Source: an uncultured Planctomycetia bacterium
Lineage (GTDB): Bacteria > Omnitrophota > Gorgyraeia > 1-14-0-20-64-10
DNA: 64,000 nucleotides
NCBI GenBank assembly: GCA_964373715.1
Contig: CAYJVR010000001.1
Span: forward strand, 21,164-85,163
Reading direction: 5' to 3'
This document shows, one piece after another, positions 20,329 through 52,049 of the stretch (position 1 is its first letter; every line of letters begins with the position of its first letter). The notes beneath the pieces are model-generated. The model was given only the letters and a program-made list of their open reading frames with translations. It was not told where the DNA came from and made no database searches. A program made the position numbers and the translations under genes.

Positions 20329-20763
20329 ATGATAGCAAAAAAATTGGGCGAACTCCTGGTGGAGCGGAAAGTGATCTCCCCGGAGCAATTAAGCGAGGCA
20401 TTTAAAATTCAGCAGGAGAAGGGCGGCTTGCTGGGGCAGATCCTCGTTGAGCTTGGCTATTCCACGGAGGAGGCTGTCGCCCAAGCGCTTACCGCCCAAT
20501 ACGGTTTCCCGTACCTTCCGCTGAAACATTACGCCATTGACAATGAACTCTTAATCCTTATCCCGGAGAACGTCGCGAAGCAGTATTGTCTGATCCCCGT
20601 CGATAGGATTGGCAACACTCTCACGGTGGCGATGGCGGATCCGTTGAACGCGAAGGCGGTTGAAGACATCGAGATGCTCAGCCGCTGTTCCGTGCAGGTG
20701 TTTGTGACTACGATGAGCGATGTCATTGAGGCGATCGGGCGTTGTTATGGAGCCAAGCCATGA
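20329..20763 (+). CDS. Stand-alone MshEN / GspE-N-terminal (T2SSE_N) domain protein, a putative c-di-GMP receptor
   Basis: 144 aa. KKLGELLVERKVISPEQLSEAFKIQQ and LLGQILVELGYSTEEAVAQALTAQ resemble the two 24-residue MshEN c-di-GMP-binding motifs (RLGxxLVxxGxIxxxxLxxALxxQ). Ends in an ATGA overlap with pilB. Confidence 0.7.
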   Translation: MIAKKLGELLVERKVISPEQLSEAFKIQQEKGGLLGQILVELGYSTEEAVAQALTAQYGFPYLPLKHYAIDNELLILIPENVAKQYCLIPVDRIGNTLTVAMADPLNAKAVEDIEMLSRCSVQVFVTTMSDVIEAIGRCYGAKP

Positions 20764-22496
20764 CCAAACCGGACCCCTTGCAGAAAGCTTCCATGGGGAT
20801 CAGCGAGCGGCTTGCTGGAGTTCTTTTGAGCGAAAAACTTCTCAAGAAGGAGGATATCGAGAAGGCGTTGGCCCTTCAGCGGGAAAAGGGAGGATCTTTA
20901 AGCCAGGTTCTGATCGAGATGGGATTGGTGGAGGCCAAGGCCCTCGCGGCGGTTTTAAGCCGCACACTTCATATACCGATTATAAGTCTCTCAAAAATGG
21001 AATTGGATCCCGACATGGCGAAGCTGATTTCCCGGAAGTTGGCCATCCATTACCAAATTATTCCGGTTTCCCTCATGGGGAAACAGCTCACCGTGGTGAT
21101 GGCCGATCCGATGAATATCCTCGCGCTGGACCATCTCAGCCAGGCGACCGGAATGATCCTGACCCCTTTGATTACCACGCAGGAGGAGGTTCAAGACGCG
21201 CTCAACAGGTTATACGGAGGGGTCATCGCCGATACTCTGCAGGAACTTCAAGGAGGGCCTGTTTCTATCGAGGTTCTTGCCGAGAGGAAAGAGTCCAGCG
21301 GGTCGGAACAGGTCGAGGATCTGATCCGGTTGACAAAGGAAGGTCCTGTTGTTCGGATCACGAACGCGATCCTGACGGAAGGGGTGACTTTGAAGGCAAG
21401 CGATATATTGATCGAACCCTTTGAAAGGCGCCTTCGGATCCGTTACCGGGTCGATGGGGTCTTCCGGGAAGGGCAGTCGCTGCCTCCGGCGATGCATGCT
21501 GGTGTCGTATCGAGGATAAAAGTGATGTCGAACCTGAACATCGCCGAGCACCGTTTGCCGCAGGATGGGCGGATTAAATTCTCAGTGGCGAGTCGGGGTG
21601 TCGATTTCCGCGTTTCTGTCATCCCCACCTATTATGGTGAAAAAGTCTGTCTTCGGATCCTCGATAAGAGCCAAGTAAGGCTCGATGTGGACAAGCTGGG
21701 TTTCGATCCTGAGCCTTTGAGGGTTCTAAAGAAGGCGATGATGCACCCGCACGGGATGGTTTTGATCACCGGGCCGACCGGTTCCGGGAAAACAACGACT
21801 CTTTACGGACTGCTCAGCTTGGTGGATCGGCCGGAAAAGAATCTCGTGACTGTTGAGGATCCGGTGGAATACGACCTGCCGGGGATCAACCAGGTAGCCG
21901 TGCGTTCCGAAATCGGGCTGACCTTCGCTACGGTTTTGCGTTCCATCCTCCGGCAGGACCCGAATGTCATCATGATCGGCGAGATACGGGATGAAGAGAC
22001 GGCAGATATCGCGGTCAAGGCGGCTTTAACCGGGCACCTCGTACTTTCCACACTGCACACGAACGATGCGATCGGTGCGGTGGCCCGGTTGGCCAACATG
22101 GGGATCGAGCCTTATTTGATCGCCTCCTGCGTTCTTTTAGTCGGGGCGCAGAGGCTGCCTCGCCGCGTCTGTCCGCGCTGCAAGCAGCCGGTCCGGCATT
22201 CGAGAGAGCTTCTTGAGCGGATGGCGCTGCCTCTCGATGGCAGTTACATGAAGGGGAAGGGATGCGTCGAATGCCGCAGTACCGGGTTGGCCGGCCGTAT
22301 CGGCCTGCTTGAGGCTGTTCCGATCACCTCGGACCTGCGAAGATTGGTTGACCAGGGGGCTTCTTCCGTTAAGTTGCAGGGGGCTGCTCGGGCTGCCGGC
22401 TTTTATTCGCTCAGAGATTATGCGGTGGCAAAGGCAGTGGCAGGTTTGATCCCTCTGGAAGAGGTGGCCCGCACAACGGTTGGATTTCAAGAATAA
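20760..22496 (+). CDS. pilB: Type IV pilus assembly (extension) ATPase PilB/GspE, copy 1
   Basis: N-terminal GspE_N domain, Walker A GPTGSGKTT, Asp and His boxes, and a tetracysteine Zn motif (CPRC...CVEC). Confidence 0.9.
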   Translation: MTKPDPLQKASMGISERLAGVLLSEKLLKKEDIEKALALQREKGGSLSQVLIEMGLVEAKALAAVLSRTLHIPIISLSKMELDPDMAKLISRKLAIHYQIIPVSLMGKQLTVVMADPMNILALDHLSQATGMILTPLITTQEEVQDALNRLYGGVIADTLQELQGGPVSIEVLAERKESSGSEQVEDLIRLTKEGPVVRITNAILTEGVTLKASDILIEPFERRLRIRYRVDGVFREGQSLPPAMHAGVVSRIKVMSNLNIAEHRLPQDGRIKFSVASRGVDFRVSVIPTYYGEKVCLRILDKSQVRLDVDKLGFDPEPLRVLKKAMMHPHGMVLITGPTGSGKTTTLYGLLSLVDRPEKNLVTVEDPVEYDLPGINQVAVRSEIGLTFATVLRSILRQDPNVIMIGEIRDEETADIAVKAALTGHLVLSTLHTNDAIGAVARLANMGIEPYLIASCVLLVGAQRLPRRVCPRCKQPVRHSRELLERMALPLDGSYMKGKGCVECRSTGLAGRIGLLEAVPITSDLRRLVDQGASSVKLQGAARAAGFYSLRDYAVAKAVAGLIPLEEVARTTVGFQE

Positions 22497-22497
22497 G

Positions 22498-24225
22498 ATG
22501 GCAAACTCATTAAGACAGAAAGTCGTAGATCTCCTTGTCGAGACGTGCGGAGTGGACCGGGAGAAGCTGGAAACCGCGCTGAAATCGCCCAAGGCGAGGG
22601 AGAAGACCCTCAGCCAACTTCTGGTGGAGGAGGGTTTGGTCAGCCAGCAGGACCTTCTCGCCACGCTCGCCGAAGGACTTCACCTGCCGCCGATCAATTT
22701 GGCCCGCTATCAGATTGATCCAGCCCTCTCTGAAGTAATCCCTGAAAGGATGGCCCGCCAATACAGGGTTGTACCCGTTTCCCGGATCGGCAACCGATTG
22801 TCGGTGGCGATGGCCGATCCGATGAATATTTTGGCCTTGGATGATCTGGCGATGACGACCTTGCTCGACATCAGCCCTGTCATCGCGGCGGAAAGGGATG
22901 TGGATCAGGCTATCCAAAAGCTGTATCATCCCGGCTTCTCTCCGGAGGCTTTGAACACCGGTTCCCAGGCTGAATTTATGGGCGGTTCGGAGGAGATGGA
23001 GGAGGAATCCGATTCAGAAGAGGATGTCGTGGATCTGACCGCCTTCGGCATGGCCGGCCAAAAAGCTCCGATCGTTAAGGTGGTGGATATGATGATCATT
23101 GAAGCCTTGAAGGCGCGCGCCAGCGATATCCATGTCGAACCCTATGAGAAAGATATCAGAATCCGGTATCGGGTGGACGGTTCCTTGATAGAGGTTTTTC
23201 GCCTGCCGAAGAGGCACCAGAGCGCTCTCGTCACGCGCTTAAAGATCCTTTCCAAGCTGGACATCACGGAGAACCGACTCCCGCAGGATGGGCGTTTTAA
23301 AGTCCGTTCGGAGAACAGGGAGGTGGACTTCCGCGTTTCCGTGCTTCCGATCTCCTTTGGGAATAAGGTTGTCATGCGCGTGCTGGACAAAGGCAATCTC
23401 TCGGTGGGATTGGAAAAGCTGGGACTGCTGCCGGAGTCCCGCGCCGTTTTTGAGAAGGCGGTTGCCCGGCCCTACGGCATGCTTCTGATCACGGGTCCGA
23501 CGGGAAGCGGGAAATCCACGACCCTCTATTCCGTGTTAGCCCAGATGAATCAGCCGGTCCGAAACATTATGACGATCGAGGACCCGGTGGAGTACCAGGT
23601 GGAGGGTATCACGCAGGTCCAGGTCAACCCGGAGATCGGGCTGACTTTTCCCTCCACGCTGAGGTCATTTCTCCGGCAGGCTCCTGATGTGGTTTTTGTG
23701 GGTGAGATAAGGGACGGCGAAACGGCCGATATCGCGATCAAGGCCTCTCTCACCGGGCAGGTTGTCCTCTCGACTCTTCACACGAATGACGCCTCCAGCT
23801 CCATCACCCGGCTTATAGATATGGGGGTGGATCCCTTCCTGCTGGCTTCCAGCCTTATTTTTGTGGCCGCCCAGCGTTTGTGCCGCCAGGTCTGCCCTCG
23901 GTGCAAAATCCCCGAACAGGTGCCGCCGGAGCGCCTTAAAGCGGCGGGCCTGAAGCTGGAGAAGAACCAGCTCCTTTACAAAGGGCAGGGCTGCAGCTAT
24001 TGCCGTCAAACAGGATTTAGGGGACGCTTCGCTATTTTAGAGGCGATGCTGGTGGACGACGCGATCCGGGAGATGATTATCGCTCGAAAGTCATCCGATG
24101 AGATTAAAACATATGCCGTGGAACGCGGGATGAGAACGCTTCGGCAGGAAGGGCTGGTTCATCTGCTGGATGGCCGGACCAGCTTTGATGAGGTGCAGAG
24201 GGTAACCAGCGAAGACGAGGAGTAA
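22498..24225 (+). CDS. Second PilB/GspE-family ATPase paralog (copy 2)
   Basis: Same architecture: GspE_N, Walker A GPTGSGKST, CPRC...CSYC tetracysteine. About 45-50% identical to copy 1 by eye. An alternative ATG at 22480 is possible. Confidence 0.9.
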   Translation: MANSLRQKVVDLLVETCGVDREKLETALKSPKAREKTLSQLLVEEGLVSQQDLLATLAEGLHLPPINLARYQIDPALSEVIPERMARQYRVVPVSRIGNRLSVAMADPMNILALDDLAMTTLLDISPVIAAERDVDQAIQKLYHPGFSPEALNTGSQAEFMGGSEEMEEESDSEEDVVDLTAFGMAGQKAPIVKVVDMMIIEALKARASDIHVEPYEKDIRIRYRVDGSLIEVFRLPKRHQSALVTRLKILSKLDITENRLPQDGRFKVRSENREVDFRVSVLPISFGNKVVMRVLDKGNLSVGLEKLGLLPESRAVFEKAVARPYGMLLITGPTGSGKSTTLYSVLAQMNQPVRNIMTIEDPVEYQVEGITQVQVNPEIGLTFPSTLRSFLRQAPDVVFVGEIRDGETADIAIKASLTGQVVLSTLHTNDASSSITRLIDMGVDPFLLASSLIFVAAQRLCRQVCPRCKIPEQVPPERLKAAGLKLEKNQLLYKGQGCSYCRQTGFRGRFAILEAMLVDDAIREMIIARKSSDEIKTYAVERGMRTLRQEGLVHLLDGRTSFDEVQRVTSEDEE

Positions 24226-33035: not shown

Positions 33036-33418
33036 GGAGAGTTCTTGCTGCGGCACTAGTTTTTTGCTCGTGCGCAGGTTTTCTGTCTGTTCAGCCGGCG
33101 TTCGCAGAATACCTCCCGAAAGGGAAAAGGGATCCGTTTGTCCTTTTGATTACCCCGGATGGGCAGAAGGTTTATCCCCCCGGTTTGGATGAGGAAGTGG
33201 CCGCCAGGGTGGACAGCTTCGCTCTTCAGGGGATTGTTTTTGATCCGAACGGAGATTCTTTTGCTGTGATCAACGGCGAGGTTGTCCATGAAGATGACGA
33301 GCTGGATGGGATAATAATCTTGAAGATAGACCCGGACATGGTGACGGTGCTGGTGGACGGCAAAGAAGACCAGCTTACCCTCAGCCAGCCAATAAAGGAG
33401 AATGAGACAGAGCCATGA
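33032..33418 (+). CDS. pilP: Type IV pilus assembly protein PilP (signal-peptide/lipoprotein-like)
   Basis: GTG start overlapping the pilO stop. Signal peptide VRRVLAAALVFCSCAGF, then a PilP-like beta domain. Confidence 0.65.
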   Translation: MRRVLAAALVFCSCAGFLSVQPAFAEYLPKGKRDPFVLLITPDGQKVYPPGLDEEVAARVDSFALQGIVFDPNGDSFAVINGEVVHEDDELDGIIILKIDPDMVTVLVDGKEDQLTLSQPIKENETEP

Positions 33419-35112
33419 GGTCAAACCTTGGTTGGAGAACGACAGTGTTTTTCGTGTGCGGTGCGGTGATTCTCGTGCAGGTCGAGCCGTTTGTCCGGAT
33501 GGCGGACGCCGACTCTGAAACGAACCAGCATGAGAGATCCAAGGTGGCCTCGTTAAGCCTGCAGGCTTCTGATGGAACTCCGGTTCCGGATAACCTGATA
33601 ACGCTTGATTTTAAGGAAGCGGACGTCCAGGTAGTCCTTCAAGCTTTGGCTAAAAAAGCGAGTATAAATATCGTCACGGCGTCCGATGTCACAGGGGCTG
33701 TCAGTCTTCACCTGAAGGATGTCACGCTGGAACAGGCGCTCGATACGATCGCCAAGACCTATGGTTTCGGCTATGAGAAGGACGGCAACGTGGTGCTGGT
33801 TTCCACCTTGGAAGAGTTAAAGGCGCGGCGTGAAACGATGAAGGACCTGGTGGAGATTGAGCCGGTGGTCACCAAAATCATTGAGCTCAGGTACATTGAC
33901 GCCGCCGACGCGCAGGATTTTCTTGAGCCTCAGCTGACCGCCCGCGGGCGAATTTCCGTCTTGGAAATAACCGGGCAAAAGGGATGGGCTTTCGGGACGG
34001 CCAAGCTGGGTAAGACCACGGATGACAAGCAGCGTAAACGGATACAGAGGGAGTCGGCCCGGTCCAAGGTGATTGTGATTACCGACACCCCGACGACCAT
34101 TGACCGTTTGGAGAGGATTTTGGCGAAGGTGGATGTCCTTCCGAAACAGATCCTCATCGAAACGCGCGTGATGGAGGTCAGCCGGGATTTGCTGCGCGAT
34201 ATTGATTTGGGCGCTGTGACCGGAGCAACCGCGGGAAGTTCTACGCTCACCGTGAGCAACCAGCCCGCCGCTAAGCAGGGCGGCACCTCAATCTCTGAAT
34301 TTGCGGGGACCCTTCTGCAGAGTTCCTTCACCCCGTCGACCTTTAACCCCGCCACGACAGGGCTGACCGCCGCGACGGCCGGGGCGCAGGTTTTCTTTCA
34401 GCAGTTGCGCGGGACGCAATTCTCCGCTTTGCTCCGGCTCTTAGAAGAGGATGTGCGCACAAACACGCTTTCCGCGCCGAATATCCTGACTCTTTCGGGC
34501 CAGGAAGCGAGAATCTTGGTCGGAGAGAAATACCCGATCCTAAAGACAGAAGTCGCCGGAACCTCGACGACGACCACCACGACAAGCCTGGATTACTACC
34601 AGAACATCGGTATTGAATTGTTCGTGGTTCCTTCGATAGGCGGTGAGGAACATGTGAGCATGCTGGTCCATCCGATTATTTCCACACGGGTCGGAACGGT
34701 CGGGACGAACGCTTACCCCATCATCAACACCCGTGAGGCTGAGACCCAGGTTGTCCTCGAGAAGGGGGATACGATCGTGATCGGCGGGTTGCTCAAGGAT
34801 CTCAAGGCCAAGTCAAGGATCGGGTTGCCCTTTCTTGGCAAGTTACCTCTTATAGGGCCTTTGTTTGCCCGTACCACGGAGGATATCGCTAAAATAGATT
34901 TGTTGATCTTCATAACGGCCAGAGTGATTGAGCCCGGAATGCTTTCTCCCGAAGAGATGGTGAGGCTGCAGCAGCAGTACCAGGAGTTTGTACATGAGCG
35001 GTTGAGCAGGAAAGGTAAACGGCGCCGTTCTGCGCCGGTTGCCTCGGGCGTTGCTTCGTCGGCAGCCACTCCTGTGTCGGGCAATAAGGGAGTTCTTTAC
35101 CAGAAGCCCTAA
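33415..35112 (+). CDS. pilQ: Type IV pilus secretin PilQ
   Basis: 565 aa. Signal peptide, N0/secretin_N-like domains, and a C-terminal secretin domain (VVLEKGDTIVIGGLLKDLKAKSRIGLPFLGKLPLIGPLF). Confidence 0.85.
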   Translation: MRSNLGWRTTVFFVCGAVILVQVEPFVRMADADSETNQHERSKVASLSLQASDGTPVPDNLITLDFKEADVQVVLQALAKKASINIVTASDVTGAVSLHLKDVTLEQALDTIAKTYGFGYEKDGNVVLVSTLEELKARRETMKDLVEIEPVVTKIIELRYIDAADAQDFLEPQLTARGRISVLEITGQKGWAFGTAKLGKTTDDKQRKRIQRESARSKVIVITDTPTTIDRLERILAKVDVLPKQILIETRVMEVSRDLLRDIDLGAVTGATAGSSTLTVSNQPAAKQGGTSISEFAGTLLQSSFTPSTFNPATTGLTAATAGAQVFFQQLRGTQFSALLRLLEEDVRTNTLSAPNILTLSGQEARILVGEKYPILKTEVAGTSTTTTTTSLDYYQNIGIELFVVPSIGGEEHVSMLVHPIISTRVGTVGTNAYPIINTREAETQVVLEKGDTIVIGGLLKDLKAKSRIGLPFLGKLPLIGPLFARTTEDIAKIDLLIFITARVIEPGMLSPEEMVRLQQQYQEFVHERLSRKGKRRRSAPVASGVASSAATPVSGNKGVLYQKP

Positions 35113-45668: not shown

Positions 45669-45756
45669 TAGATTCCGGTTCGGTGCTTATTGAGGCGGCA
45701 ATTCCTGTTTTCGTTTTGCTCCGTTGTCTTGTTCATGAAACTTTAAAGGGGGGATC

Positions 45757-45897
45757 ATGGAAGCCTACTGTGTAAAGTGCAAAGCTAAGAAAGAGATGCA
45801 GGAAGCCCAGAAGGTCTCTATGAAGAATGGGCGTCCTGCGATGAAGGGGAAGTGCCCTGATTGCGGAACAGGCCTTTACCGGATTCTTAAGCCATAA
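45757..45897 (+). CDS. Small zinc-ribbon protein (DUF5679-like), missed by the ORF track
   Basis: 46 aa, MEAYCVKCKAKKEMQEAQKVSMKNGRPAMKGKCPDCGTGLYRILKP. CxxC...CxxC. Strong AAAGGGGGGA RBS 3 nt upstream. Confidence 0.55.
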   Translation: MEAYCVKCKAKKEMQEAQKVSMKNGRPAMKGKCPDCGTGLYRILKP

Positions 45898-45929
45898 CTG
45901 CCCGCACAACACGACAGATCGCGGTTGCC

Positions 45930-46277: not shown

Positions 46278-47966
46278 ATGCCTATAATGCCTACCACATC
46301 GCTTGAGCTTACATTGCGGGATTTGATCCAGAAAGCGGTCGAAGAAGCTGGATTCCTGCCCAGCGGGGAGTCGGTTCTTCCGATCAGCTTGGAGATCCCG
46401 AGGATACGTTCGCACGGGGATATGGCAACCTCCGTGGCGATGCAGCTGGCTTCCAAACTCCGCAAACCCCCGCTGGAGATTGCCGAGACCGTTTCCAACC
46501 ATCTGAGAGGGTTGCTCAAAGATTCCCCGATTCAGGAATCGGTGGAACGGCTCGAGACCAAACCGCCGGGTTTCATCAACCTTTTCGTCAGCCGGAATTT
46601 TCTCTACCAGGTGCTCCAGGAGGTTCTCGAACAGGGGCCGGAATACGGCAGGTCAGACCTCGGAAAAGGGCGCAAGGCGCTGGTGGAGTTTGTCAGCGCC
46701 AACCCGACCGGGCCTCTTTCGGTGGCACACGGGCGTCAGGCGGCCGTGGGAGATGCGCTGGCACATATACTTGCTTTTACCGGGTACCGGGCCATGCGGG
46801 AATATTACCTCAACGATGAGGGCACTCAGATTGACTTGCTCGGGGAATCGGTTTTGGTCCGGGCCAAGGAGTCTCTTGGGATTTCCGCCCAGTTTCCGGA
46901 AAACGGCTATAAGGGAGACTACATCCGCTCGATGGGGGAGTCCCTGGCCAAAAAATTCGGTCGGGCCGTTTTGGAAAGCGGCAAGGCTAAAGAGATTTCC
47001 AAGAAATTCGCCGTCGGGGAACTCGGGCGGGTCATTCAAGGAGAACTGGACCGTTTCGGCGTGAAGTTCGGGCCCTGGTTTCCCCAGAGTTCCCTGAACA
47101 GGTTCGGCTATCTTACCCGCACTCTCGGCATTCTCAAGAGGCGCGGATATCTTTATGAGCAGGAAGGGGCCTGGTGGCTGAAGTCCACCGCTTTTGGGGA
47201 TGACAAAGACCGGGTGGTGATCCGGTCGGACGGCCGCCTCACCTACATCGCCGCGGATATCGCTTACCACAGAAAAAAATTCCAGCGGGGGTTTGAGCTG
47301 CTGGTGAATCTTTGGGGGCCGGATCATCACGGCTATATCGCCCGGATGAGGGCGGCGATTCAGGCGCTGGGTTTCCCTTCTGAGGCGCTGGAGGTGAAAA
47401 TCATCCAGCTGTGCACCTTAAAGAGAGGGGAGGAAACGATCCCGATGTCCACGCGGGAAGGGGAATTCACCACCTTGACCCAAGTGATGGATGAGGTCGG
47501 CATGGATGCCGCCCGGTTCTTTTTCCTTCTGCGGAAGTCGGATGCCCACCTGGAATTCGACCTGGAGTTGGCGAAGAAACATTCATTGGAAAACCCCGTT
47601 TACTACATCCAGTACGCGCACGCCAGGATATGCAACATCCTTGAGAACCAGAAGAAGGAGTCGGAAATTTCGGGTGCCCGGCCCGATTATTCGAAGATGA
47701 GCTCTCCCGAAGAGTTGGCCCTCTTAAGGCTGCTGCGGGAATTTTCCGGCGCGGTGGAGGCCGCCGCCCGGGCTTTGGAGCCCTTTGGGGTCATCTCTTA
47801 CCTGCAGGGCCTTGCCGAGGCGTTCCACCGTTTCTACGATGTTCACCGGGTGCTTGGCCAAGACCCTGCCCTTTCGGCCGCTAGGCTGGATCTGATCAGG
47901 GGTGTCAGGACCGTTTTAGCGACCGGTTTAAGGCTTTTAGGGGTTTCCGCTCCGGAAAAAATGTAA
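46278..47966 (+). CDS. argS: Arginyl-tRNA synthetase
   Basis: 562 aa. Class I core with a HIGH-like SANPTGPLSVAHGRQ motif and a C-terminal DALR anticodon-binding domain. Confidence 0.9.
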   Translation: MPIMPTTSLELTLRDLIQKAVEEAGFLPSGESVLPISLEIPRIRSHGDMATSVAMQLASKLRKPPLEIAETVSNHLRGLLKDSPIQESVERLETKPPGFINLFVSRNFLYQVLQEVLEQGPEYGRSDLGKGRKALVEFVSANPTGPLSVAHGRQAAVGDALAHILAFTGYRAMREYYLNDEGTQIDLLGESVLVRAKESLGISAQFPENGYKGDYIRSMGESLAKKFGRAVLESGKAKEISKKFAVGELGRVIQGELDRFGVKFGPWFPQSSLNRFGYLTRTLGILKRRGYLYEQEGAWWLKSTAFGDDKDRVVIRSDGRLTYIAADIAYHRKKFQRGFELLVNLWGPDHHGYIARMRAAIQALGFPSEALEVKIIQLCTLKRGEETIPMSTREGEFTTLTQVMDEVGMDAARFFFLLRKSDAHLEFDLELAKKHSLENPVYYIQYAHARICNILENQKKESEISGARPDYSKMSSPEELALLRLLREFSGAVEAAARALEPFGVISYLQGLAEAFHRFYDVHRVLGQDPALSAARLDLIRGVRTVLATGLRLLGVSAPEKM

Positions 47967-48002
47967 GAACGTTGCAGCTAAGTTTGCGCCAGCCGCCCGT
48001 TC

Positions 48003-49952
48003 TTGCAGAGCGCCTTCTTTATGTCTAGTTTTGATTCTATAAAAATCTGCAGGGGACAAGAACTGGACCTGCACGAAACGGTCCAGCAGCTTCTCGCCCA
48101 AGGGTATCAGCGCGTCGTCAAGGTGTCCGACCCGGGGGATTGTTCCGTCCGCGGCGGGATACTGGATCTTTTCCCTGAAGGTTTTGATGCCCCGGTCCGG
48201 ATCGAGTTGGATGACCAAACGGTAGAGGGGATCCGGTCAGTTCATCCTCTGACCGGCAAGCCGTTTTTCTCCCACGAGATGGTGATCGTTGTCCCGACGG
48301 TTTCGCTCCATCGCCGCTCTTTGAAAGCCTCCGTCAAACATCTGTTTCTGGGAGAGGAGTCCCCGCTGGACCCGTTCGTGGATATCCGGGTGGGGGACAT
48401 GGTCGTCCATGTGTCGCACGGGATCGGCAAGTATTTGGGGTTGAAGAAGGTCAGAGGGAAAAGCGGGATTGTGGAGCACATCGCGCTTGAGTATGCCAAC
48501 GGGGACCGCCTTTATGTGCCTCTGGCGGAATTGAATTTGCTCCAGAAATACATCGGGTTTGAGGGTAGACCCGCGCAGCTGTCCCGCCTGGGCACGAAAT
48601 ACTGGGAGCGGTCGAAGGAATGGGCGAGGAAAGGGGCGGCTTCGGTCGCGTTCGAGCTTCTGGCTCTTCAGGCCAAGAGGCTGAGTCGTTCCGGATTTGC
48701 CTTCAACCCGGATACCGATTGGCAGAAGGAGTTGGAGGAGGCTTTTCCTTATAAAGAGACAGGCGGCCAGTTGAAGGCAATGAAAGAGGTCAAGCAGGAT
48801 ATGGAGACCGCCAGGCCGATGGACCGCCTTTTGTGCGGCGATGTCGGGTACGGCAAAACGGAGGTGGCTCTGCGGGCCGCTTTCAAAGCGGTCATGAACG
48901 GCAAGCAGGCGGCACTCTTATGCCCCACCACGATTTTGGCGGAGCAGCATTACACCACATTTTCCGGCCGGATGAAACAATTCCCGGTGTCGGTGGCGAT
49001 GCTCTCGAGATTTCAGACCGCCGTGGCGCAGGCCGAGGTGGTCAAGAGACTCGCTCAAGGTGAAGTGGACATCCTCATTGGGACCCACAGGCTTCTTTCC
49101 AAAGATGTCCGGTTTAAAGATTTGGGCCTTCTCATCCTCGATGAAGAACAGCGGTTCGGAGTCCGCCACAAAGAGCATTTGAAGCGGTTGAAGACGGAGG
49201 TGGACGTTTTGGCGATGACGGCCACCCCCATTCCCCGGACGCTGTATCTTTCTCTCATGGGGGCTAAGGCGATGTCGGTCATTGACACCCCTCCGTTCGA
49301 GAGGCTTCCGGTGGAGTCGGTGGTGGCTGAGGAGGAGAATTCACTGATCCGGCATGCCATCGAACGGGAAATCTCCCGTTCCGGGCAGATCTTCGTGGTC
49401 TATCCGTGGATTGAAGGGATATTCAAGGTCTACAAGAGGATTGCTGCCCTTGTTCCCTCGGCCCGGATGGCGCTGGCCCACGGGCAGATGCCTTCCCGCG
49501 CATTGGAGAAGGCGATGCTCTCCTTCATGCGAAGGGAATTAGACATCCTGGTTTCCACGGCTATTATCGAGTCCGGCATTGATATTCCGAACGCTAACAC
49601 GATCATCATCTTCCGGGCCGAATCGTTCGGCCTGGCGGATCTTTATCAGCTCAGGGGTAGGGTAGGCCGTTTTACGCGGCAGGCCCACGCCTATTTTTTA
49701 ACACCCAAGGGGATGCCTTTAACCGGGGAGGCGAGGAAAAGGCTGAAAGCCATCGAAGAGTTCTCCAGCTTGGGTGCTGGGTTCCAGATTGCCCTCCAGG
49801 ACCTTCAACTGCGGGGCGCAGGAAATATGCTCGGAGTTGAGCAGCATGGCCACATCAGCGCGGTTGGTTTTGACCTGTACTGCCGGCTTTTGAAGGGAGA
49901 GGTCCAAAAGCTGAAGGAGCAGCAGGCGGCCGTTGGTTTGGCGGCTGGATAG
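48003..49952 (+). CDS. mfd: Transcription-repair coupling factor Mfd homolog, short form (lacks N-terminal D1a/D2 and C-terminal D7)
   Basis: 649 aa versus about 1150 for canonical Mfd. Contains the RNAP-interaction domain ([17 protein letters not shown]...YVPLAEL) and the SF2 translocase ([16 protein letters not shown]...DEEQRFGV...QLRGRVGR). Ends about 25 aa after the helicase core, and argS abuts upstream. Confidence 0.8.
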
Positions 49953-49963
49953 GGGTTTCGGGC

Positions 49964-49992
49964 TTGATGGGAAGATCGCTTCGTGGTAGACT
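49964..49992 (+). promoter_or_regulatory. Candidate sigma-70-like promoter (TTGATG-17-TAGACT)
   Basis: ttgatg 49964-69, 17-nt spacer, tagact 49987-92, about 70 nt upstream of the ppiC-like gene. A similar -10 hexamer occurs at 63634. Confidence 0.3.
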
Positions 49993-50062
49993 CTCGTAGT
50001 GTTTTTGGTAGTTTGCCAAGCCAAATGAACTGTTTCATAACCCGAACTTAGGAGAAATAAAC

Positions 50063-50974
50063 GTGTTTCGACATCCTTTTTTCCGCGTGAGAGGACTTCT
50101 TTTGTCCCTGGTGTTGATCGGTGTTGCCCTCACCTCAGGCGGTTGCGGTTCCGGGGGTAAGGTTGCCGCCGTCGTTAACGGACAGGTGATTACTCAGAAA
50201 GAGGTGGATCAGCGGATGGCTCGCCTGAATCCCGCCTACCGCCAGGCTTTAGGCGGGGACAGCAAGAGGCTTCTCGAAGAGATGATTATGGAGACGATTC
50301 TTATTCAGGAGGCGCGCCGCCGGGGTCTCGAGCGGGATGTCGAAGTGGATAAATTGGTGAAAGAGGCCAGAAGGCAGATCCTTCTTGGACGTCTTTTGGA
50401 GACGATCCGGGAAGGGAAGGCGTCGGAGCTGGGCGCCGCCGATGTGGCCAAGGCGTATGAGGAAAATAAGAAGTTTTATGTCGAGCCGGAGACCTTCCGG
50501 GCCAGTCATGTCCTGGTTGCCACTGAACAGGAGGCGCAGCAGGTAATCGACCGGTTGAAGGCCGGAGAGGATTTCGCCAAGGTGGCACAGGAGCTTTCCA
50601 CCGATCCGACCAAAGCCCGCGGAGGCGACATCGGTTATTTCTCGAAAGGGCAGCTTATCCCTGAGTTTGAGCAGGCCTGTGAAAAACTGCAGCCGGGGGA
50701 GATCAGCGGGGTTATCAAAACCCAGTTGGGCTGTCATGTGATCCGCCTTACCGAACGGAAAGCGTCCAGACAGCTCCCTCTAGAAGAGGTGAACGATCAG
50801 ATCAAGAAGCAATTAGTGTCCCAGCAGGAGCAGAAACTGGTGGAGACCTTCATCCAGCAGCTGCGGGCGAAAGCGCAGGTGCAGATCCGGGACGCCGCCA
50901 ATGCTGTTTCGAAGACCGCTCCGGCAAACAAGCCGGTTGCCCCTGACGCGAATCTTCCTGCCGGCGGTTCTTAG
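50063..50974 (+). CDS. PpiC/parvulin-type peptidyl-prolyl isomerase, probable lipoprotein (PrsA-like)
   Basis: GTG start after an AGGAG RBS. Signal peptide with a Cys (LTSGGCGS). Parvulin domain (FRASHVLV...GGDIGYFSKGQLIPEFEQA...GCHVIRL). Confidence 0.75.
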   Translation: MFRHPFFRVRGLLLSLVLIGVALTSGGCGSGGKVAAVVNGQVITQKEVDQRMARLNPAYRQALGGDSKRLLEEMIMETILIQEARRRGLERDVEVDKLVKEARRQILLGRLLETIREGKASELGAADVAKAYEENKKFYVEPETFRASHVLVATEQEAQQVIDRLKAGEDFAKVAQELSTDPTKARGGDIGYFSKGQLIPEFEQACEKLQPGEISGVIKTQLGCHVIRLTERKASRQLPLEEVNDQIKKQLVSQQEQKLVETFIQQLRAKAQVQIRDAANAVSKTAPANKPVAPDANLPAGGS

Positions 50975-51017
50975 CCGTCGGCGTTTTTATTTTAGAGAGC
51001 GGTTCCGGGGGTAGTTG

Positions 51018-52049
51018 ATGAGACAGAAAAGATTTACCGGCTGTTTTTTGAAGTTAACCCTCGGATTGTTTTTCCTGCACGTTTTCCTTCTGGACCCGTT
51101 TTCCCCCGCGGTTTGCCTGCATGCCGAACAGATGGGCATCGTGGCGGTCGTCAATGATGACGTCATTACACAGTCGGATTTGGATATGGCCCTCGCCCCC
51201 GTTTACCTGCAGATGCAAAACAGCACCGCTCCGGAGGAGATGGCCTCAAAAGCGGAGGAATTGCGCGAAGAGGTCCTTCAGCAGCTGATCGAAGAGAGCC
51301 TCCTTCTCCAGGAGGCTCATCAGCCGAAACCGGTGGAGTTCGGGAAGAATAAGATCGGCACGCCTTCCCCGATCGAGGTGACGGAGTTCGAGGTGGATAA
51401 GATGGTCAAACAGGTGACATCAAAATTCCCCACGGTCGAGGAGTTTAACCAGGCTCTCAAAGAACAGGGATTGACGATCGAAAACTTGAGGGATCGCTTC
51501 AAGAAACAGATCACCATCAAAAAACTGATCGGCAGGCAAGTCTATTCCCGGATCGTGGTGGCTCCGTCAGAGGTGACCTCCTACTACCAGGAGCACCAGA
51601 GGGAATTCATGCTCCCCGCCGCGGTCAAGGTGGCGGTTATCGTCATCCGCACTAAGAAAGGGCTTGACGCCTTGCATGCGAAGAGCCTCGCGGATAACCT
51701 CCACCAACAAATTTTAAGCGGCGGCGATTTTTATGATCTGGCGGCCCGTTATACCGACGGCCCAAATCCCAAGATGGGCGGCCGCATCGGGTTTCTGGAT
51801 CAGGGCAGAGGGATGAAAGAGATTGACGTGGTTCTGTTCAAGCTCAAAGCAGGGGACATCTCGCCGGTGATCGAGGCGGGCGGCGCTTTTTATATTTTCC
51901 GTGTTGAGGAGTTCCGGCCGGCCGAGCAGGCCACGCTCGATTCAGTCAAAGACCTTGTCCAGGATAAGCTTTTTCAGAAGAAAGGTTCGGTTGTCTACAA
52001 AGAGTGGATAGATAAGCTGAAGGAGAATGCCTACATCTCGATCAAGTAG
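51018..52049 (+). CDS. surA: SurA-like periplasmic chaperone/PPIase
   Basis: Signal peptide, SurA N-terminal chaperone domain (VVNDDVITQSDLD), and one parvulin domain. Confidence 0.75.
   Translation: MRQKRFTGCFLKLTLGLFFLHVFLLDPFSPAVCLHAEQMGIVAVVNDDVITQSDLDMALAPVYLQMQNSTAPEEMASKAEELREEVLQQLIEESLLLQEAHQPKPVEFGKNKIGTPSPIEVTEFEVDKMVKQVTSKFPTVEEFNQALKEQGLTIENLRDRFKKQITIKKLIGRQVYSRIVVAPSEVTSYYQEHQREFMLPAAVKVAVIVIRTKKGLDALHAKSLADNLHQQILSGGDFYDLAARYTDGPNPKMGGRIGFLDQGRGMKEIDVVLFKLKAGDISPVIEAGGAFYIFRVEEFRPAEQATLDSVKDLVQDKLFQKKGSVVYKEWIDKLKENAYISIK

Follow-up and report, generated by a model that had tools for sequence, protein, structure and literature searches.

A conserved short Mfd of Omnitrophota that combines an intact D2 domain and translocase motor with the absence of D1, D3, and D7

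Can an Mfd protein that has shed several of its domains still couple transcription to DNA repair? This question is raised by a 64,000-nucleotide stretch of DNA (hereafter the window) from contig CAYJVR010000001.1 of an uncultured Omnitrophota bacterium (GenBank assembly GCA_964373715.1), in which a 649-codon open reading frame (ORF) encodes a short homolog of Mfd, the factor for transcription-repair coupling (TRCF) that in E. coli has 1148 residues. In an earlier note on this DNA, the protein was described as lacking both the N-terminal region that recruits UvrA and the autoinhibitory D7 domain. It is near certain from our analysis that the ORF represents a real, conserved, and minimal Mfd without D7, though one in which D2, the UvrB-homology domain that binds UvrA, is intact.

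The assignment to Mfd, which had already been made for the ORF at 48003-49952, was upheld by the NCBI curated mfd equivalog TIGR00580, whose cutoff of 800 was passed with 841.4 bits. Rather differently, the protein scored 613 bits against the cutoff of 1329 for PRK10689, a model trained on full-length enterobacterial Mfd, and thus failed it. Foremost among the matches in the protein data bank (PDB) were the mycobacterial, E. coli, and Thermus Mfds (E values from 1e-174 to 1e-150), and Mfd structures were also the first to be retrieved with the full-length AlphaFold model (pLDDT 85, pTM 0.75). RecG was considered as another identity and rejected, with its best model giving 410.8 bits (cutoff 718) for the motor only, while the N-terminal part consists instead of D2 and the domain for interaction with RNA polymerase (RNAP), or RID. 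Four Pfam domains were identified, and these included UvrB_inter (PF17757, residues 13-99, E value 3.6e-17), CarD_TRCF_RID (PF02559, residues 129-184, 9e-16), DEAD (PF00270, residues 256-413, 1.3e-25), and Helicase_C (PF00271, residues 453-557, 1.1e-19).

When aligned with E. coli Mfd by BLAST, the protein gave exactly two segments, with residues 17-78 corresponding to E. coli residues 132-193 (35% identity) and residues 125-638 to E. coli residues 474-987 (49% identity), and the same two-segment picture was obtained from a 158-sequence MAFFT alignment. The domain order is D2, a tether of ~25 residues, RID (D4), the relay helix, D5, and D6 with the TRG motif and hook helices. Absent are D1a, D1b together with D3 (an internal loss of ~240 residues), and D7, which makes for three separate deletions that removed about 500 residues and spared D2. 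Here, the claim of a missing UvrA-recruitment N-terminus proves right for D1a, D1b, and D3, but not for D2, for which PF17757 is covered at positions 1-88 of 91 and the predicted fold agrees as well. The tether that takes the place of D1b and D3 is the sole long low-confidence stretch of the full-length model (pLDDT below 50 around model residues 104-115), shows a family identity of 0.38, and was matched by MAFFT only in a scattered and short manner. At the other end, the protein terminates at the point where canonical Mfd begins its linker to D7 (the D6/D7 boundary, at about E. coli residue 987), and PF03461, which represents the TRCF domain (D7), had no match in it, so that the proposed absence of D7 is borne out.

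What is left between D2 and this boundary includes an intact motor. The RID and the superfamily 2 (SF2) motifs through motif VI, along with the peptides quoted for them in the earlier note, are found at the places it had given. In the RID, a 15-residue peptide lies at 48399-48443. The core of this domain (GD.VVH..HGIG.Y.G) reaches at least 90% conservation across the family, a level shared by SF2 motifs I-VI, all of which are present. Contrary to the statement that the protein stops about 25 residues after motif VI, there are 93 residues past QLRGRVGR, and it is among these that the TRG motif and hook helices lie. In fact, the three TRG residues Arg580, Arg604, and Gln614 correspond to the DNA-contacting Arg929, Arg953, and Gln963 of E. 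coli Mfd (Kang et al., 2021), and all of them are conserved, as are the relay helix and hook helices in the family. Because these 93 residues carry both elements, the Mfd motor is, as judged from its motifs, complete.

For a protein of such unusual length, a frameshift, an assembly truncation, gene decay, or the separate encoding of the missing domains has to be considered, though length is the sole feature that speaks for any of these. Both junctions at 48000 and 49950, for which the earlier note had suggested a check, were read and show no frameshift or truncation, with complete flanking genes and in-frame stops on either side. Upstream, argS, which shares the frame of mfd, ends at 47966, and stops occur in this frame at 47964 and 47979; only 36-54 nucleotides remain before the mfd start. 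While the frame is open from TTG 48003, the likely start is ATG 48021, six codons further on, which is preferred because gene callers use it for the source contigs and it agrees with the N-terminal consensus of the family (MxxSxKIY...), and this would give a protein of 643 residues. An identical 643-residue product with the same neighbors is found on contigs from three independent assemblies, each from different sequencing runs, and an assembly error was rejected on these combined grounds. Moreover, over 100 homologs share this length and have their catalytic motifs intact, and the short form also occurs in a closed genome.

The missing domains were likewise not recovered elsewhere. With E. 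coli Mfd as the tblastn query, residues 1-131 and 194-473 gave no alignment to the window. Profiles for D1a, D1b, D3, and D7 were built from 41 full-length Mfds and searched against ORFs from all six frames of the window and of nine related Omnitrophota loci, where the best E value for the D1a, D1b, and D3 profiles was 0.057 or worse and the D7 profile found nothing (best E value 0.36). Hence, separate ORFs for D1a, D1b, D3, or D7 (the earlier note had proposed a search of the genome for ORFs with D1a/D2 or D7) were found neither in the window nor in these loci, whose six frames contain no D1, D3, or D7 signal. In agreement with this, only residues 154-233 of E. coli UvrB could be aligned in the short-mfd loci that were matched (L003 and L004), as against residues ~20-340 in many full-length mfd loci. 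There is also no room for D7 beside the short mfd, because the order mfd-PPIase-pdxA-rsmA is conserved and the gene for a peptidyl-prolyl isomerase (PPIase) directly follows the mfd stop in relatives as well; across Omnitrophota loci, the conserved order extends to gatC. Thus, the notion that the flanks leave no space for split fragments is substantiated by the positions of argS and the PPIase gene, though its additional proposal of an intergenic promoter is not, as a scan of 49953-50062 for a sigma-70-like consensus gave no match. In addition, sigma-70 and terminator scans of the mfd flanks returned nothing that exceeded background. As a last point, an Omnitrophota metagenome-assembled genome (MAG) of ~94% completeness counts mfd once and does not list PF03461 in the available part of its published annotations (Seymour et al., 2023). 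Altogether, an artefact, a pseudogene, or a split gene is extremely improbable.

To this we add an observation on the same boundary in two Omnitrophota relatives (P0029 and P0038; 78% identical and both 941 residues), in which the short mfd frame runs without a stop into the downstream PPIase. The fused ORF includes the PPIase's own methionine and lipoprotein signal peptide (LASGC/LAAGC), and the junction is the equivalent of window positions 49950-50063. This fusion could be either a true loss of the stop codon or a merge by the gene caller.

With regard to its distribution, the short form is by no means confined to the window. Among the best 120 database matches, 116 are 600-680 residues long with the same set of Pfam domains, down to 56% identity, and their source names, where given, are Candidatus Omnitrophica or Omnitrophota. 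A scan of species-representative genomes revealed the short span in all seven Omnitrophota-labelled loci, including the closed chromosome of Ca. Velamenicoccus archaeovorus LiM, as compared with about 2.6 kb from D2 to the end of D6 in other phyla. Two contigs (L007 and L011) from MAGs named 'uncultured Planctomycetales' also carry a short mfd with the PPIase gene directly behind it, as Omnitrophota do, and L007 has pdxA and rsmA in addition; these may reflect loose taxon labels or an extension of the short form beyond Omnitrophota. When 1.84 billion representatives (50% identity) were searched exhaustively, only two of the best 150 matches were short, and the other 148 had 1017-1332 residues. 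As for descent, the 117 short proteins formed a single clade in neighbor-joining trees, whether these were built from motor columns or from D2 columns, and because of this agreement, a single origin with a probably vertical inheritance of D2 is indicated. The short form is thus inherited and apparently typical of Omnitrophota. In databases, automatic annotation gives its members one of two names, 'DEAD/DEAH box helicase' or 'transcription-repair coupling factor'. In the limited literature searched, which included Omnitrophota genome papers, we found no earlier description of a natural D7-less Mfd or of this architecture.

The state of D2 bears on what the protein might do. A D2 profile made from full-length Mfds only matched it with an E value of 3e-21 (positions 2-73 of 79). 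An AlphaFold2 model of D2 alone (pLDDT 90, pTM 0.82) could be superposed on the E. coli Mfd D2 with a rmsd of 0.9-1.1 Å. The model aligned well with 4dfc_A (target-normalised TM-score 0.93, rmsd 1.1 Å), the D2 fragment of Mfd from the core UvrA/TRCF complex, for which D2 alone was crystallised with UvrA, and with 3fpn_B (TM-score 0.87), the domain 2 of UvrB from the UvrA-UvrB interaction complex. Judging by profile coverage and modelled fold, D2 is whole. Nor does it appear to be decaying, since its conservation relative to the motor equals that in full-length Mfds (0.45 versus about 0.67 in the short family, and 0.41 versus about 0.60 in full-length Mfds). A capture of D2 from UvrB is not favored, as the domain is closer to the E. 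coli Mfd D2 (35% identity, 46.6 bits) than to E. coli UvrB (29% identity, 39.3 bits) and its tree is congruent with that of the motor.

As markers of the UvrA interface in D2, we used the E. coli residues Arg165, Arg181, and Phe185. Both arginines have a dual role in the E. coli protein, i.e., in the clamp with D7 and in the binding of UvrA (Manelyte 2010, PMC3025350; Brugger 2026, PMC13453472). In the short family, the Arg165 position is an arginine in 73 of 116 members, including the window protein (Arg50), and the Arg181 position is one in 115 of 116 (Arg66 in the window protein). Because D7 as their other partner is gone, the retention of these arginines points to UvrA binding, and a role in this binding is what most simply explains the near-invariance of Arg181. 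For the conclusion in the earlier note that the protein would be unable to recruit UvrA via D2, this leaves little ground, as both arginines are kept and the alignment contains a complete D2, the very outcome that the note itself had named as speaking against its view.

The presence of a partner for D2 in these bacteria was assessed from the source tables of Seymour et al. (2023), using per-genome annotations of Omnitrophota in the part that covers the first genomes. In this part, a single KEGG orthology (KO) assignment for each of uvrA, uvrB, uvrC, and mfd is listed both for genome 58 and for genome 231, and among four more genomes, TIGR00630 (uvrA) and TIGR00580 (mfd) are listed for all four and TIGR00631 (uvrB) for three. 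Genome 58, which is the ~94%-complete MAG and belongs to order B26-G9, lists both PF02559 and PF17757, and PF03461 is nowhere to be found in the available part of the tables. As far as these tables go, nucleotide excision repair (NER) is present in the phylum with mfd as a single-copy gene, and the D7 domain appears to be absent genome-wide in genome 58 at least. Among other candidates examined in this connection, a weak D2-like match beside mfd on locus L009 was rejected as a uvrB, being a T2SSE ATPase, and a 981-residue ORF in the window was rejected as UvrA, being an isoleucyl-tRNA synthetase. Other large ORFs in the window turned out to be PBP2, FtsW/RodA, T2SSE ATPases, a secretin, and similar proteins.

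Taken together, with a probability of roughly 0.6, we regard the short Mfd as a lineage-specific, minimal, and naturally clamp-less TRCF, in which the motor would be de-repressed and a tethered D2 would recruit UvrA, with transcription-coupled NER being kept. We infer the working of this protein from the E. coli Mfd literature, onto which we place the domain content, intact motifs, conservation, and lack of D7 observed here. By analogy, the RID would dock on the β subunit of a stalled RNAP, and D5 and D6 would translocate on the upstream duplex DNA and, like those of canonical Mfd, drive RNAP onward or dislodge it from the template. Because D7 and the D1a/D1b scaffold are both missing, a D2:D7 clamp of the E. 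coli type presumably cannot form, and the ATPase and translocation activities are then expected to be de-repressed, with the D2 surface always exposed. The tethered D2 could thereby recruit UvrA, and transcription-coupled NER would be retained. Constitutive de-repression had also been foreseen in the earlier note, and this remains the likely outcome by analogy with truncations of E. coli Mfd (PMC3025350, PMC3488230). In fact, variants of E. coli Mfd without N- or C-terminal domains are all de-repressed, and Mfd-ΔD7 remains capable of strand-specific repair both in vitro and in vivo, whereas the UvrB homology module (BHM) is essential (Manelyte 2010, PMC3025350). In addition, the Mfd of T. thermophilus is naturally and constitutively de-repressed (Brugger 2026, PMC13453472). 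Whether Omnitrophota, as sampled, perform transcription-coupled repair (TCR) with such a minimal TRCF (tethered D2, RID, and motor, with neither clamp nor D7) is in our estimate an even call.

Several observations, however, weigh against a D2 that hands over to UvrA and a motor that is permanently on. First, Phe185, the third residue of the 'AAA' triple for UvrA binding in D2, is replaced by Asp70 in the window protein, and by Asp, Ser, or Glu in most of the family. Second, D2 occurs in two subtypes (window residues 46-58, nucleotides 48138-48176), the canonical xRGGxxDxFP of the window protein and of Velamenicoccus, and a remodelled RLGDTxTxYP in about one third of the family or more, in which the arginine has moved by one position, the otherwise invariant Asp170 is lost, and the Arg165 position is a leucine in 33 of 116 members (up to ~43 being non-Arg). 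Third, there are new family-specific residues in D2, namely Phe61 (E. coli Ser176; 48183-48185) in all 116 short Mfds and Ser79 (E. coli Val194; 48237-48239) in 105 of 116, at positions that vary in full-length Mfds; these may form a new D2 surface or compensate for lost contacts with D1. Fourth, no uvr genes were found by tblastn with E. coli UvrA and UvrB, either in the 64-kb window or at any of the short-mfd loci, and the UvrABC proteins are known, through the part of the published tables described above, from other Omnitrophota genomes rather than from the organism of the window. Lastly, Smith (2012, PMC3488230) deems a permanently active Mfd unlikely in cells.

On the first three of these rests the alternative that the protein is a factor for RNAP release only, having the motor and RID of Mfd and a D2 that no longer binds UvrA, and which is kept for structure, another partner, or regulation. 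This would imply that Omnitrophota lack Mfd-dependent TCR. There is a precedent for it as well, as atypical Mfds without UvrA coupling are known from Buchnera, Wigglesworthia, and chloroplasts (Smith 2012, PMC3488230). Yet those UvrA-independent Mfds dropped the whole BHM, D2 included, where UvrABC is absent, while here D2 was selectively kept through three deletions in a phylum for which the available tables report UvrABC. Against this alternative are also the near-invariance of Arg181 despite the loss of D7 and the predicted D2 fold, which lies within 1.1 Å of the UvrA-bound fragment. Moreover, Phe185 is itself not universal in canonical Mfds, being Phe in 22 and Asp in 3 of the nearest 40 full-length proteins, and a change from Phe to Asp might tune the affinity so that UvrA is not sequestered. 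Hence, a different repair hand-off or a pure RNAP-release role, one or the other of which the earlier note took to be implied, does not follow from the architecture, and release alone survives as a weaker and somewhat unlikely rival because of the Asp in place of Phe185. We view it as quite improbable that D2 was kept because it now serves some different partner in place of UvrA.

The doubt expressed by Smith (2012, PMC3488230) leads to yet another alternative, which is compatible with the recruitment of UvrA and disputes only the de-repressed step. Here, autoinhibition would be achieved by another route, with the tethered D2 or the hook-relay interface holding the motor off until RNAP is bound. 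Regulation based on the hook, relay, and TRG elements has indeed been proposed in that same study, the relay and hook helices are conserved in the short Mfd, and the family-specific invariant residues in D2 could mark a new intramolecular interface. Nevertheless, hook-relay control in E. coli acts through D7 (Smith 2012, PMC3488230), which is absent here, and the linker between D2 and RID is predicted to be disordered. Natural de-repression is, furthermore, tolerated in the T. thermophilus protein, and none of the N- or C-terminal truncations of E. coli Mfd cited above remained repressed. On balance, we think this route unlikely, and retain the clamp-less and de-repressed TRCF as our preferred reading.

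The positions of the features discussed are collected in Table 1, where residue numbers, as in the text (e.g., Arg50, or 549-556 for QLRGRVGR), count from TTG 48003 in the 649-residue form.

Table 1. Coordinates of the short mfd gene, its domains and motifs, and the flanking genes in the window.
Feature	Residues	Position	Strand	Basis or remark
argS, complete, upstream flank		46278-47966	+	Arg_tRNA_synt_N, tRNA-synt_1d, DALR_1
Short mfd ORF	1-649	48003-49952	+	649 codons from TTG 48003, uninterrupted; TAG stop at 49950-49952
D2 (UvrB-homology domain 2, UvrA-binding domain)	13-99	48039-48299	+	PF17757 positions 1-88 of 91
D2 motif RGGILDLFP		48150-48176	+	R50 = E. coli R165
D2 motif PVRIEL		48192-48209	+	R66 = E. 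coli R181
Linker (tether) in place of D1b and D3 (about 240 residues)	100-124	48300-48374	+	Low pLDDT, low conservation
D4 (RID)	125-198	48375-48596	+	PF02559; aligned to E. coli Mfd from residue 474 (474-547)
Relay helix and D5 (TD1)	199-431	48597-49295	+	PF00270 DEAD; motif conservation
Walker motif		48837-48869	+	D5
Motif II, DEEQRFG		49140-49160	+	D5
Further SF2 motif of D5		49218-49241	+	Motif conservation
D6 (TD2)	432-637	49296-49913	+	PF00271; aligned to E. coli Mfd up to 986-987
Motif VI, QLRGRVGR	549-556	49647-49670	+	D6
Hook helices, GFDLYCRLL		49866-49892	+	Conserved in family, as is the relay helix
C-terminal tail, 12 residues, unconserved	638-649	49914-49949	+	Family identity 0.12
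SurA-like PPIase, downstream flank		50063-50974	+	Starts 110 nucleotides past the mfd stop

Some features of the surroundings deserve mention in their own right. Directly 3' of mfd, there are two SurA-like PPIase genes in tandem (50063-52049), the first with a lipoprotein-like signal (…LTSGGC). Between the CNNM/CBS gene and rsfS, a 46-residue DUF5679 ORF is called at about 45750-45900 (L082, 2218-2358). A tandem pair of T2SSE/MshEN secretion ATPases (584 and 581 residues) and a secretin are located at 20742-24225 and 33415-35112, these representing a type IV pilus or a cluster resembling a type II secretion system (T2SS), and a T2SSE gene also adjoins the short mfd on locus L009. Over the whole window (1-64000), all long and credible ORFs are on the + strand and the GC skew is positive in 32 of 32 two-kb bins, making it one co-directional block.

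As regards the wider meaning, the regulation of Mfd is usually explained by the D2:D7 clamp of the E. coli protein. If our preferred reading is true, then autoinhibition and the D1/D3 body are naturally dispensable, and an isolated, permanently exposed D2 is enough for the hand-over to UvrA. The short Mfd would define the minimal set of modules retained by evolution for a coupling factor, and, being small and simpler, lends itself to structural and single-molecule studies of the UvrA hand-off. On the practical side, marker sets that expect the TRCF domain (PF03461) will miss Mfd in Omnitrophota. We also considered whether this domain is among the CheckM markers that are systematically missing in Omnitrophota, but this was rejected, the excluded markers being TIGR03594, PF13603, and PF02978.

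In comparison with canonical Mfd (E. coli Mfd, TIGR00580), the short Mfd shares D2, RID, the relay helix, motifs I-VI of D5 and D6, the TRG motif, and the hook helices. Canonical Mfd additionally has D1a, D1b, D3, and D7, without which the short form has no D2:D7 clamp and no D1-D3 body, and it differs further in having an Asp at Phe185. Two canonical features (D1/D3 and D7) are thus missing, while the functional core (D2, RID, motor, and TRG) is there. RecG, by contrast, has a homologous SF2 motor with a TRG motif, but combines this with a wedge domain and has neither RID nor D2. A closer likeness is seen with the engineered E. coli Mfd-ΔD7 (Smith 2007; Manelyte 2010, PMC3025350), where D2 is likewise present and D7 absent, though this is a laboratory construct that keeps D1a, D1b, and D3, whereas the Omnitrophota form is natural, conserved, and also without these domains.

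Among natural proteins, the atypical Mfds of Buchnera aphidicola, Wigglesworthia glossinidia, and Arabidopsis chloroplasts are likewise truncated with RID and the translocase kept, yet these present the opposite pattern, as the whole BHM including D2 is absent, D7 and the hook-relay interface are kept, and there is no UvrABC (Smith 2012, PMC3488230). The short Mfd of Omnitrophota has retained D2 and shed D7, in a phylum for which the part of the tables covered here reports UvrABC, and this contrast supports the idea that D2 is retained where UvrABC is present. Lastly, the T. thermophilus Mfd (978 residues) is de-repressed and has a reduced N-terminal module, with D1a-D2-D1b contained within residues 1-191 (Brugger 2026, PMC13453472). 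Unlike the short Mfd, it retains D1a, D1b, D3, and D7, and it shows that autoinhibition is not universal among Mfds.

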